Origin: a virus
Lineage: Duplodnaviria; Heunggongvirae; Uroviricota; Caudoviricetes
Virus record (IMG/VR): IMGVR_UViG_2851938318_000009
Coordinates: 1-42,689 of that record
Strand: one strand, 5' to 3'
Length of the DNA: 42,689 nucleotides
The translations under genes and the position numbers were made by a program. The notes under the pieces were generated by a model. It was not told where the DNA came from. It ran no database searches and saw only the letters and a list, made by a program, of their open reading frames with translations. Each line of letters starts with the position of its first letter. Within the stretch, counting starts at the first letter, position 1. This document shows, piece after piece, positions 1 to 42,689 of this stretch.

Positions 1-642
1 TTAATTTTTTAAAACGAAGTTACCTCTGTCAGGGTCAAAAGCACAATTATCTCTTCCTACAATCATTGAAACTGCGATTGATTCCCTGCTCAAAGGATGA
101 GCCGCCCTTGTTTTAACAAGATGTATTAATGCCATTTTATCATACAACATACAAACATTTGAATTCATTGAATTCCTCATAAATACCCCATCTTCTGGTT
201 CACATAATGTAACAGGGCATGTTCGTAAGCTCTCTGGCACTTGCAATTGTGCATGCTCCACATTAAATGCACATACTTCAATTTTATCTAACAACTCCTC
301 TAACTGGTAGTTAGAAAGCAAATCCATATTTTCGAGCATCTCAATTTCACGCAGTACTGTAACTTCACGGCTTGTCAAACTACCATGATTAAGTGTACGT
401 TCAATATGTTCTATATATTGAAGGCCAATCTGGATATTATCATTCGATAAACCATCCTGGTTAAGACTTCCCATAAAATATCCATTTACCTGCATAGGTC
501 GTATTGACACCATCAACTCACCCAGTCTTATTTGAGCTTCTCCACGAATAGTCTGATTACGTATCTCAGACAAGGTTTCTTGAGGAATGTCAGACAAAAA
601 ACTAACCCCAGGTAAAATATAAGGCGTTAAATCTACAGGCAT
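1..642 (-). CDS. nleG: NleG-family type III secretion effector (U-box E3 ubiquitin ligase-like)
   Basis: 213-aa ORF; C-terminal block CPVTLCEPEDGVFMRNS...HPLSRESI matches the conserved NleG U-box region; paralogous to the next two ORFs; AT-rich moron at the prophage tail end. Confidence 0.7.
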   Translation of the reverse strand: MPVDLTPYILPGVSFLSDIPQETLSEIRNQTIRGEAQIRLGELMVSIRPMQVNGYFMGSLNQDGLSNDNIQIGLQYIEHIERTLNHGSLTSREVTVLREIEMLENMDLLSNYQLEELLDKIEVCAFNVEHAQLQVPESLRTCPVTLCEPEDGVFMRNSMNSNVCMLYDKMALIHLVKTRAAHPLSRESIAVSMIVGRDNCAFDPDRGNFVLKN

Positions 643-723
643 TCCTCTCCCTCCATTTTAATAACTTAATTTTGCTTTAGTAAAAAATAAAAGTACATAA
701 AACTACATTTATATCATTAATTA

Positions 724-1353
724 TCACTTACAACAAAAAGCTTCTCTTTTTGTATCAAAGTGACATTCATCTTTTCTCATAATCATTGATTCTGTTATAG
801 GTTCTCGACTCAGAGGATGAGCTCCACCAGTTTCAACAAGTTGCACTAACGCGTCCTTATCATATAGAGAGCATATCTCAGCACCTCGTGAGTTTCTCAT
901 GAACACCCCAGTCTCAGGTGTGTCCAGCGTTATCGGGCATGTCAAAAATGACTCCGGGCAAGAAAAGTGATTAGAATCAGGTCTAAATAAACAAGAATTT
1001 ATTTTTTCCATTAATATTTTATTACTTGTTTTATTTTCTCTGTGTTCTGCCATGACACTCTGAAAATAGTTATTAACACTACTTAAAAAATCGACACCTC
1101 CATTTAATTGCCTTTCCAGAGCCACAGCCCTTCTCTCCATTCGATGCTCACGCCCCAATAGCCTATCCAGTAAGCCTCCTCTCACCGGTTCAACTGAAAA
1201 TCCATCCAGTAGCTGGACATAGTGAACAGAATATTGGCCACTACCAATGGATATTCTTATTCCACTTTCAAGTCTGGCAGCATCCTGCAAAGACTGTACT
1301 CCTGCAGGAGATAATTGAGATATACTTGGGATACTTAAGGTGGTAACAGGCAT
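724..1353 (-). CDS. nleG: NleG-family type III secretion effector
   Basis: 209-aa ORF with CPITLDTPETGVFMRNS...AHPLSREPITESMI block; tandem paralog. Confidence 0.7.
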   Translation of the reverse strand: MPVTTLSIPSISQLSPAGVQSLQDAARLESGIRISIGSGQYSVHYVQLLDGFSVEPVRGGLLDRLLGREHRMERRAVALERQLNGGVDFLSSVNNYFQSVMAEHRENKTSNKILMEKINSCLFRPDSNHFSCPESFLTCPITLDTPETGVFMRNSRGAEICSLYDKDALVQLVETGGAHPLSREPITESMIMRKDECHFDTKREAFCCK

Positions 1354-1394
1354 AAAAACCTCATTCAGTAATTCATATCAGTTTGCAGGATGTT

Positions 1395-1438
1395 TCATTA
1401 AATAAAATAAAGGGTAATGTTCATTTCAATTACCCTTT
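1395..1438 (-). terminator. putative intrinsic terminator after the third nleG copy
   Basis: inverted repeat AAAGGGTAAT / ATTACCCTTT spanning the stop codon of ORF 1426..2052, followed on the minus strand by a U-rich run. Confidence 0.35.
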
Positions 1439-41050: not shown

Positions 41051-41122
41051 TGTTCAACTGTCGCCGGTTGTGACTGGTATTCTGCAACCGGCGCTCGTCT
41101 GATGTAAGAGATAAAGAAATCG

Positions 41123-41374
41123 ATGAGCGAAGTAATCATGATTGTCTCTCCCGGCAAATGGGTATCCGAAGAGCAGTTAATTGCGCTGAAAGGAATAAAA
41201 AAAGGTACGTTAAAAAAGGCCCGGGAAAAATCGTTTATGGAAGGAAGGGAATATAAGCATGTCGCTCATGACGGTATGCCATGGGATAACAGTCCATGCT
41301 TTTACAACCTGGAAGAAATTGATCGCTGGATTGAGCGCCAGGCATCAGCGAGACCAAGACGTCATCTTACTTGA
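41123..41374 (+). CDS. xis: excisionase-like protein
   Basis: 83-aa ORF immediately upstream of the integrase gene. Confidence 0.55.
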   Translation: MSEVIMIVSPGKWVSEEQLIALKGIKKGTLKKAREKSFMEGREYKHVAHDGMPWDNSPCFYNLEEIDRWIERQASARPRRHLT

Positions 41375-41393
41375 CTAAAAGCCACACTAACTA

Positions 41394-42689
41394 ATGAGAG
41401 AAGTTGAAATGAAATATCCGACAGGCGTGGAAAACCATGGAGGGAAATTACGTATCTGGTTTGTTTATAAAGGCGTAAGAGTCAGGGAAAATCTGGGGGT
41501 TCCTGACACAGCAAAAAACAGGCGCGTTGCAGGTGAACTACGCTCCTCTGTTTGTTACGCAATAAAAACTGGTGTTTTCGACTATGCAAAACAGTTTCCC
41601 TCCTCACGCAATCTGGAAAAATTTGGTGAGGCCCGACAAGATTTAACCATAAAAGAACTGGCTGAAAAATTTCTGGCACTGAAAGAAAATGAAGTCGCCA
41701 AAACATCACTCAACACATACCGTGCCGTCATCAAAAATATCCTGAGCATAATCGGTGAAAAAAATCTTGCCTCATCGATTAATAAAGAAAAATTACTGGA
41801 GGTTCGTAAAGAGCTACTGACTGGATACCAGATCCCCAAAAGTAACTATATTGTTACACAACCAGGGAGATCGGCTGTAACTGTAAATAATTACATGACA
41901 AATCTTAACGCCGTGTTCCAGTTTGGTGTTGATAACGGTTACCTGGCAGATAATCCGTTTAAGGGGATCTCGCCATTAAAGGAATCAAGAACCATTCCGG
42001 ATCCTCTTTCGCGGGAGGAATTTATCCGTCTTATCGATGCGTGCAGAAATCAGCAAGCAAAAAATTTATGGTGTGTTTCTGTTTATACTGGCGTTCGCCC
42101 TGGTGAGCTGTGTGCACTTGGATGGGAGGACATAGATCTGAAAAATGGAACAATGATGATCAGGAGAAATTTAGCAAAAGACCGTTTCACGGTACCAAAA
42201 ACACAGGCGGGAACCAATCGGGTCATTCATCTTATTAAGCCAGCAATCGACGCTCTCCGGAGTCAGATGACATTAACGAGACTGAGTAAAGAGCATATCA
42301 TTGATGTTCACCTCAAAGAGTATGGCAGAACAGAAAAACAAAAATGCACCTTTGTTTTTCAACCTGAAGTGTCAGCGAGAGTAAAAAATTATGGTGACCA
42401 TTTTACCGTTGACTCAATAAGGCAGATGTGGGACGCAGCGATAAAACGTGCCGGACTCCGCCATCGAAAATCATATCAGTCGAGACATACTTATGCCTGC
42501 TGGTCGCTGACAGCTGGTGCTAACCCGGCATTTATAGCAAACCAGATGGGCCATGCAGATGCGCAAATGGTATTTCAGGTATACGGAAAATGGATGTCTG
42601 AAAACAATAATGCACAGGTAGCTTTGTTAAATACACAGTTAAGCGAGTTTGCCCCAACCATGCCCCATAACGAAGCAATAAAAAATTAA
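41394..42689 (+). CDS. int: tyrosine site-specific integrase
   Basis: 431 aa; catalytic-domain motifs …SRHTYACWSL… and …GHADAQMVFQVYGKW… (R-H-R-Y pattern); alternative ATG at 41409; stop at the window end. Confidence 0.85.
   Translation: MREVEMKYPTGVENHGGKLRIWFVYKGVRVRENLGVPDTAKNRRVAGELRSSVCYAIKTGVFDYAKQFPSSRNLEKFGEARQDLTIKELAEKFLALKENEVAKTSLNTYRAVIKNILSIIGEKNLASSINKEKLLEVRKELLTGYQIPKSNYIVTQPGRSAVTVNNYMTNLNAVFQFGVDNGYLADNPFKGISPLKESRTIPDPLSREEFIRLIDACRNQQAKNLWCVSVYTGVRPGELCALGWEDIDLKNGTMMIRRNLAKDRFTVPKTQAGTNRVIHLIKPAIDALRSQMTLTRLSKEHIIDVHLKEYGRTEKQKCTFVFQPEVSARVKNYGDHFTVDSIRQMWDAAIKRAGLRHRKSYQSRHTYACWSLTAGANPAFIANQMGHADAQMVFQVYGKWMSENNNAQVALLNTQLSEFAPTMPHNEAIKN

Follow-up and report, generated by a model that had tools for sequence, protein, structure and literature searches.

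A lambdoid prophage of Escherichia coli O111:H8 reshaped by insertion sequences, deletion and an inversion between the Rac and Qin sites

This study concerns IMG/VR record IMGVR_UViG_2851938318_000009, a stretch of 42,689 nt (hereafter the window, meaning the whole stretch of DNA that was analysed), which is a complete-looking lambdoid prophage already annotated in RefSeq by the Prokaryotic Genome Annotation Pipeline (PGAP). The data suggest, with a probability of about 0.8, that the window is a fixed, non-viable prophage of Escherichia coli O111:H8 that arose by ordinary, stepwise and largely neutral processes. Its true mosaic joint is a reciprocal crossover in the tail-tip gene J, which came from an inversion between a prophage at the Qin site (prophage A) and an oppositely oriented prophage at the Rac site (prophage B). 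The initial annotation of this DNA had described a mosaic of head, tail and immunity modules and missed the real joint.

The window matches the chromosome of strain RM9131 (NZ_CP028429.1, 1945322-1988010) at 100% identity, with both halves matched, in a comparison with 5426 genomes. Genome counts in this study refer to these complete RefSeq genomes only, figures given as "up to" use a criterion of at least 80% coverage, and not every match was inspected individually. RM9131 is an E. coli O111 from bovine faeces in California, and the closest relatives of the window are found in O111:H8/H- strains. In the RefSeq annotation the window extends from the stop codon of the outermost gene for a DUF1076 (NleG) protein to that of the integrase gene; it is flanked in RM9131 by nifJ-ompN-uspF on the left and by rspB-rspA-ynfA on the right. 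A scan of the window for tRNA genes found none. The head, tail, Qin-type early region, cargo genes, one IS91-family element and two IS629 elements that had been listed for this DNA were all found by Pfam, Rfam, PGAP, PDB and genome comparison.

A reciprocal crossover in J

The crossover was mapped by a four-way DNA alignment of the window, its reciprocal copy, parental prophage A and parental prophage B, in which informative sites were scored. From window position 8300 to 7142 all 251 of 251 informative sites were A-type, and from 7088 to 5405 all 164 of 164 were B-type, while the reciprocal copy in RM9131 has the mirror-image pattern. The switch is single and clean and falls within 54 bp of identical sequence at nt 788-842 of J. 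The reciprocal crossover point lies at about 1,700,033-1,700,087 of NZ_CP028429.1, the inverted segment measures about 252.3-252.4 kb, and both chimeric J open reading frames (ORFs) remain open. The reciprocal hybrid (1.654-1.715 Mb of RM9131) runs from ttcA and intR through recET to an intact H, sodC and the chimeric J, and is then completed by the A-derived end with lom, fibres, an nleG fragment, nleH1-2, nleF and espM1.

Both parental arrangements are present in other strains. Prophage B of 2013C-4081 lies beside uspF and has the order nleGx3-fibre-lom-J-sodC-I, followed further on by an intact H and the Rac-type early genes ydaT, sieB and kilR. Prophage A of E2855 lies at rspB and has the same IS91 element in H and the same first IS629 junction as the window; it keeps Q, a second inverted insertion sequence (IS) and an intact exonuclease gene, and its distal end differs, with its own J, lom, fibres, nleG fragment, nleH1-2, IS-truncated nleF, nleG and espM1. 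The two prophages share about 19 kb at about 97-98% identity. In K-12, only the ttcC' fragment separates uspF from the tail-fibre end of Rac, rspB adjoins the integrase end of Qin, and uspF and rspB are on the same strand, whereas in RM9131 these two genes are on opposite strands and flank one prophage; RM9131 is therefore the derived state. The left end of the prophage is a Rac/ttcA-type junction and the right end is an rspB-site junction with a different integrase. Two opposed homologous prophages, both reciprocal products and a single marker switch were thus all found for this inversion. The Qin-site prophage thus did not keep its nleG triplet, lom, fibres and the larger part of J but acquired them from B through the crossover in J. 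The protein accession of the first nleG gene is identical to that beside uspF in 2013C-4081 and E2863, and the lom accession is the same as in parental prophage B.

The inverted segment was also considered as the plain K-12 interval between Rac and Qin. This was not upheld, as the distal end of A adjoins tonB-yciABC-ompW and another prophage, which points to an older rearrangement or to tandem prophage remnants in the O111 lineage. In RM9131 (NZ_CP028429.1, 1714000-1736000) the original effector end of A abuts tonB-yciABC-ompW and a Qin-like prophage at ompW, not ydfJ as in K-12.

Strain E2863 (NZ_AP018802.1, 1936000-1983000) carries a second, independent inversion between A and B, with the crossover around the capsid gene. 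Its rspB-site prophage has the parental J of B, sodC, the intact H of B and a frameshifted B portal gene, followed by A-type terminase, the Q deletion, int and rspB. Derivation of E2863 from the RM9131 arrangement by a second inversion was ruled out by the parental J allele beside sodC in E2863. Strain 7-55 62A may resemble E2863, judging by coordinates alone. At least two independent crossovers have occurred in this pair, one in J (RM9131, 110512 and OkiPb01689) and one near the capsid gene (E2863). A broader proposal, quite unlikely as a whole, is that the prophages at the Rac and Qin sites of O111:H8 act as a recurrent recombination pair that re-assorts J, fibre and effector modules and flips about 250 kb, combined with a sequence-specific IS629 hot spot in prophage exonuclease genes. 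If it were true, swaps between A and B could alter how effectors are expressed or bring intact phage genes together with defective ones; the E2863 swap, which brings an uninterrupted tape-measure gene into the Qin-site prophage, is an example of such re-pairing.

The junctions differ widely in distribution. Positions 1-21000 of the window are matched full-length at 100% in only three of the 5426 genomes (RM9131, OkiPb01689 and 110512). The junction of the IS91 element with H was detected in up to 32 genomes and the left junction of IS629 copy 1 in up to 50. As a single 100% piece, the Q-deletion junction on the right of copy 1 is present in five (E2863, RM9131, 110512, 9662 and 14614) and the exonuclease-IS junction in RM9131 alone. 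The locus is still changing.

Insertion sequences and the loss of Q

The two IS629 copies, which PGAP names IS1203, differ from each other at 1 nt. Both have terminal inverted repeats (TGAACCGCCCC...), two ORFs with a -1 frameshift, and an ALIL pseudoknot that scores 121.5 bits in each (Rfam). Copy 2 in the exonuclease gene is a clean simple transposition, the sole such event among the two copies; the empty target site is seen in E2855, and the gene is uninterrupted in E2855, E2863 and OkiPb01689. The lack of a target duplication at copy 1 fits an adjacent deletion. To the right of the same copy 1 left junction, the E2855 prophage has Q, a second inverted IS3-family copy, a DUF977 remnant and a complete 321-aa early gene. 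Relative to E2855, RM9131 lacks a further 2.9 kb next to the IS, and this deletion took away Q, the second, inverted IS and some of the replication-gene sequence; E2855 itself is already without most replication and nin genes. The three independent IS events that were proposed initially are real in that an IS91-family element and two IS629 copies hit H, the replication/Q region and the exonuclease gene. However, three is an undercount, because copy 1 borders the 2.9-kb deletion and E2855 reveals a longer history, and the events are of differing age. In OkiPb01689 (NZ_AP042540.1, 2023000-2037500, positions 3879-5092) the IS at the Q site points the other way and its junctions are slightly shifted, and the truncated early gene is 651 nt there versus 660 nt in the window.

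An IS-bearing exonuclease gene is also present in O111 strain 11128 (NC_013364.1, 2580635-2586034, at about 1390 and 2698), with IS1203 at the homologous GAC in the same orientation. This gene is an approximately 80% identical paralogue in a different prophage at the tRNA-Ser/mtfA site, and SF26 102-1 and 2015C-3101 appear to share the 11128-type arrangement, as judged from the junction match table alone. Gene conversion from such a paralogue was considered as the source of copy 2 and ruled out, since the window flanks equal the E2855 allele up to the IS and keep a 12-nt stretch that the 11128 paralogue lacks. Because the window flanks are unconverted, the two insertions are independent, and together they suggest an IS629 target hot spot in prophage exonuclease genes at the site GAC|GGNCATATCGTTGAAGC.

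The junctions of the IS91-family element were mapped by comparison with an uninterrupted H. Elements of this family insert beside a GTTC/CTTG target without duplication. The ends of this element are ambiguous by 3 nt (ATC), and GTTC/CTTG is not evident at such an ambiguous joint.

Decay of lytic functions

The claim that lytic functions are decaying agrees well with what was found: H and the exonuclease gene are each interrupted, the replication genes are incomplete, Q has been lost together with the region downstream of it, and the ends come from two integration sites. A comparison of the uspF-side and rspB-side flanks for shared direct repeats found none of at least 12 nt, a result that is weak alone and agrees with the two-site origin. 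The flank that separates uspF from the first nleG gene holds a short ORF start, MSQNQEISKKEQYNLNK, some 360-440 bp to the left of window position 1. Its translation is similar to the N-terminus of TtcA, as is that of the ttcC' fragment next to Rac in K-12. The TtcA-like flank marks the true left boundary of the prophage, which lies outside the window.

With ends from two different sites, the prophage cannot leave the chromosome as one unit. The absence of a matched att pair, of Q and of a late promoter, together with the truncated replication genes and the split H, indicates that it would be non-viable as a unit. Parts of it are self-contained and, as predicted from the DNA, can still act: the nleG genes, lom, the DicA-like repressor with the dicF-dicB operon, and the small RNAs (sRNAs) with their own terminators.

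Cargo genes and small RNAs

All three NleG ORFs carry the C-terminal U-box-like domain PF06416 in proteins of about 190-215 aa, and a role as effectors and E3 ligases is predicted. An esterase role is likewise predicted for NanS-p, which matches NanS (PDB 3pt5, 2e-121) and the NanS-p C-terminal domain (6yp6, 8e-30). The nanS-p gene lies between the Q region and the holin gene, upstream of the latter. In such phages the late promoter is located just downstream of Q. The nanS-p ORF is intact, but the upstream Q and late-promoter region are gone from the RM9131 prophage. The description of the cargo (nleG x3, nanS-p, lom, dicB-DicF and sRNAs) as intact is thus correct for ORFs and RNAs, but it does not extend further, as nanS-p is left without Q and the late-promoter region.

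AgvB retains the CACAACA mimic of a GcvB target and an intrinsic terminator at 31637-31656. The AgvB and STnc100 genes converge and are directly adjacent, with no base between them, and a separate terminator hairpin serves each; IS629 copy 1 lies 380 bp away. In the Rac prophage of K-12 (positions 18390-19985 of the Rac locus examined) lomR is cut by IS5, so an IS is found in a "cargo" gene there as well.

Early region and immunity

The early region has a divergent DicC-like/DicA-like pair followed by ydfA-like, dicF, dicB, ydfD, exonuclease, xis and int, and then rspB. The assignment to a Qin-type immunity region is borne out by synteny, as gene order and chromosomal site are those of K-12 Qin. 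In Qin, too, the integrase adjoins rspB, the early-left order from the dicC-like gene to int is the same with ydfE as the exonuclease gene, and DicB is identical. The ydfE homologue is also cut by an IS, in that case IS2E (positions 7079-8549 of the Qin locus examined). Unlike Qin, the window retains a full head, tail and lysis module and cargo of enterohaemorrhagic E. coli (EHEC), and its distal end comes from another prophage. In a protein comparison limited to the two regulators, the DicC-like protein is 70% and the DicA-like protein 57% identical to those of Qin, which argues against a shared specificity; the immunity specificity of the window prophage probably differs from that of Qin. 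A Pfam search with the truncated early-right gene at 33545-34204 gave no match.

Head, tail and lysis modules

The tail genes have the lambda order V-G-T-H-M-L-K-I-J, followed by lom and the side fibres, on the minus strand (Pfam), with H interrupted. The head has an HK97-family portal, an S78 protease-capsid fusion and gp6-like and gp10-like connector proteins (Pfam). An HK97-type head and a lambda-type tail are thus both present as described initially, but this is the normal layout in this phage group. Their combination is not a special mosaic joint, because the block is 95-97% identical in many Shiga toxin (Stx) phages and the tape measure itself matches the HK97 tape-measure family. Phage 2851, Stx2a_WGPS6, Stx1a phages and Lys8385Vzw are 95-97% identical over 69-90% of window positions 8273-26363, with the same protease-capsid fusion, portal and tape measure. 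Unlike the window, these are deposited as phage genomes and carry stx, whereas the window has no stx and no Q, has a split H and contains IS elements.

At the level of Pfam families, to which the comparison was limited, the portal, S78 protease, capsid, gp6-like, gp10-like and tape-measure proteins are shared with HK97. HK97 itself is said, in work of Juhala et al. from 2000, to join an HK97 head type to a lambda-order tail. In contrast to HK97, the window has its protease fused to the capsid, this gene lies before the portal gene, and the portal has a C-terminal extension of about 470 aa. The head gene order (18695-23423) of protease-capsid fusion, a 73-aa ORF and then the 859-aa portal gene is unusual for the HK97 family. 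The portal extension is without a family match, and this layout is common to many Stx phages. The coordinates of all features are collected in Table 1.

Table 1. Features of the 42,689-nt window, with PGAP, Pfam, Rfam and PDB evidence
Feature	Position	Strand	Evidence and remarks
nleG family gene 1	1..642	-	213 aa; NleG family (type III secretion system effector U-box E3 ligase family); PF06416 1.7e-43; DUF1076 (PGAP), no pseudogene flag; B-derived
nleG family gene 2	724..1353	-	209 aa; PF06416 8.2e-47; PDB 5vgc (NleG5-1) 1e-25, 2kkx (NleG2-3) 5e-23
nleG family gene 3	1426..2001	-	191 aa by PGAP, ORF reaching 2052; PF06416 1.8e-46
Side tail fibre genes (N-terminal/collagen-repeat protein and C-terminal domain protein)	2114..3698	-	PF08400, PF06820, Collagen; B-derived
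lom (Ail/Lom outer-membrane protein)	3763..4362	-	PF06316 positions 1-199 of 199, 1.2e-117; B-derived
J, chimeric tail-tip gene	4433..7930	-	1165 aa, ORF open; Pfam J domains; first ~790-840 nt from A, rest from B
Crossover interval	7088..7142		Last A-type site 7142, first B-type site 7088; inside J
Tail genes I, K, L, M	8273..10639	-	PF06805, Prok-JAB+NLPC_P60, PF05100, PF05939; A-derived
H (tape-measure) 3' fragment	10632..12020	-	PF09718 and end of PF06120; pseudogene in PGAP
IS91-family element	~12021..13830	+	121-aa ORF and 395-aa Y2 (HUH-type) transposase, zinc-binding N-terminus; Y2_Tnp PF04986 8.9e-40, Zn_Tnp_IS91 PF14319 2.8e-19; inside H
H (tape-measure) 5' fragment	13831..15702	-	PF20155, PF06120
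T, G, major tail V, tail completion gp17, HK97-gp10-like, head closure, head-tail connector	15754..18692	-	Pfam
Portal protein	18695..21274	-	859 aa; HK97-family domain PF04860 5.5e-81, residues 54-382
Prohead protease-major capsid fusion	21486..23423	-	645 aa; Peptidase_S78 (PF04586) and Phage_capsid PF05065
Terminase large and small subunits, HNH endonuclease	23487..26363	-	PF03354/PF20441, PF03592
Lysis cassette: holin, YdfR-like, lysozyme, Rz-like	27001..29153	-	PGAP; ORFs intact
nanS-p	29599..31449	-	616 aa; prophage 9-O-acetyl sialic acid esterase family; DUF1737+SASA+DUF6645
AgvB anti-GcvB sRNA	31601..31662	+	RF02702, 96.5 bits vs gathering score 56
STnc100 prophage sRNA	31663..31853	-	RF02076, 143.3 bits vs gathering score 47; terminator 31693-31676
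IS629/IS1203 copy 1	32234..33543	+	1310 bp; no target duplication (GAT vs TCA); borders deletion
Truncated early-right gene (321 aa when intact)	33545..34204	-	Replication-gene position, C-terminus lost; PGAP pseudogene; intact 966-nt gene in E2855
YdaT-like gene, DicC-like Cro (-), DicA-like repressor (+)	34185..35402		Pfam; Qin-type immunity architecture
DicF sRNA	36570..36621	+	RF00039, 72.5 bits, over Rfam gathering threshold
dicB	36796..36984	+	DicB 100% identical to K-12 protein
ydfD-like gene	36981..37172	+	DUF1482
Exonuclease gene	37266..41050	+	823 aa when intact; two PGAP pseudogene fragments; Rv2179c-like 3'-5' exoribonuclease domain
IS629/IS1203 copy 2	37707..39016	-	1310 bp; splits exonuclease gene; GAC 3-bp duplication at 37704-37706 / 39017-39019
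Excisionase and tyrosine integrase of rspB (Qin) site	41123..42689	+	DUF1233; Arm-DNA-bind_2 and Phage_integrase; ORFs intact

Discussion

The structures, the junctions, the reciprocal product and their distribution among genomes are direct observations, and a stepwise history can be proposed for them. It would have started with prophage A at the Qin site, with Qin-like early genes and an HK97-family structural module. At least one IS629/IS1203 insertion with associated deletions would have affected its replication-nin-Q region, an IS91-family element would have entered the tape-measure gene H, and a further 2.9-kb IS-adjacent deletion would have removed Q. Homologous recombination in J with the oppositely oriented, about 97-98% identical prophage B at the Rac site (ttcA) would then have inverted about 252 kb of the chromosome and exchanged the distal J-lom-tail fibre-effector ends of A and B. 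Finally, in RM9131 alone, IS629 would have transposed into the exonuclease gene. We infer the order of the steps up to the loss of Q and a RecA-type mechanism of recombination.

One alternative is that the hybrid is an assembly artefact in which near-identical prophage repeats were misjoined. The 19 kb shared by A and B is the type of repeat that is classically prone to this. However, RM9131, OkiPb01689 and 110512 were independently assembled and carry an identical hybrid over 21 kb, the exact reciprocal product exists in RM9131, the switch is single and clean within its 54-bp interval, and the differing crossover in E2863 demonstrates that such inversions really happen, which together make a misjoin extremely improbable. 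It is also very improbable that the element can be mobilised as a unit through complementation by the many related resident prophages. Prophages of O157 Sakai whose head genes are defective do become packaged, and some of them are transferred (PMC2669165); in the window, the ORFs for int, xis, terminase, capsid, portal and lysis proteins are undamaged. Against this, its ends come from two attachment sites (a ttcA-type fragment on the left and rspB on the right) with no repeat of 12 nt or more shared by the flanks, its replication genes are incomplete, it has lost Q and the late-promoter region, and H is split.

A different explanation is domestication, in which purifying selection preserves nleG, nanS-p, lom, dicB/DicF and the sRNAs while lytic functions decay, and the initial annotation had read the pattern as selection for cargo retention. 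Every cargo ORF and RNA in the window is intact, AgvB gives O157 an advantage when growing in bovine rectal mucus (PMC4104026), and 343 genomes match at least 80% of window positions 1-21000, which hold the effector genes, the tail and part of the head. However, the cargo makes up only 4793 of 38259 non-IS nt (12.5%), so random insertions would all miss it with P=0.67 for three and P=0.59 for four, and the finding that none of the 6 cargo genes is among the 4 disrupted of 46 genes has P=0.56. When both RM9131 hybrids are taken together, disruption affects 2 of 15 cargo genes, namely the nleG fragment and nleF, as against 9 of 104 other genes (Fisher P=0.63); the counts are rough because they come from PGAP flags. 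The intact nleG triplet was imported by the inversion from the Rac-site prophage and not retained by A, whose own distal cargo is partly dead, with a frameshifted nleG fragment and an IS1203-truncated nleF. The nanS-p gene has lost Q and the region downstream of it. The later events are recent: of the 5426 genomes, one has the exonuclease IS, three have the J hybrid and five the Q deletion. Events of such recent origin cannot reveal selection. Chance figures, the imported triplet and the recent events thus leave the proposed selection unsupported by the pattern, and domestication is unlikely. The pattern is what short-term neutral decay gives, with the cargo intact as a small target and most of the events recent.

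Several points weigh against the stepwise, largely neutral reading. Selection on some cargo genes is plausible, for example on AgvB, whose CACAACA motif was defined in the O157 study that described its growth advantage (PMC4104026). Defective EHEC prophages can be packaged with the help of other prophages or rescued by recombination (PMC2669165), and because such rescue is possible, "non-viable" applies to the present unit and not to its parts. The IS orientation and junctions in OkiPb01689 make the order of events in the Q region tentative and mean that IS629 changes there are ongoing. Lastly, the junction counts rest on the 80% coverage criterion in complete RefSeq genomes, with matches not all inspected.

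The locus is a fresh instance of well-known phenomena, an ordinary dead lambda-like prophage of cattle and human E. coli O111. The defective lambda-like prophages of O157 Sakai (Sp series; Asadulghani et al. 2009, PMC2669165) are similar in that many related, effector-carrying lambdoid prophages bear frameshifts, deletions and IS insertions and recombine within the host to give chimeras, although they belong to a different serotype and are different individual prophages. In E. coli O157:H7, inversions of about 100-400 kb are bounded by homologous prophages (Fitzgerald et al. 2021, PMC8743559). The inversion described here, of about 252 kb, is likewise bounded by homologous prophages, in this case oppositely oriented, and is recurrent, as shown by the second crossover in E2863; it differs in that it occurred in O111:H8 and that its crossover is mapped to 54 bp inside J with two chimeric J genes as products. 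In the literature collection that was searched, there was no paper on RM9131 and no O111-specific account of the approximately 252-kb inversion.

The J hybrid and the exonuclease-IS junction could be used in strain typing, as they mark a small O111 sub-lineage that includes 110512 (O111:H-, human host). The analysis also gives reason for caution, since a "mosaic prophage with intact cargo" seen in a single genome can stem from an inversion between prophages, so that the cargo may not belong to the decaying phage, and claims of selection require population data and a null model. The locus has little significance other than as a record, but it illustrates clearly how the EHEC prophage pool changes through IS629 activity, IS-adjacent deletion and recombination between prophages.

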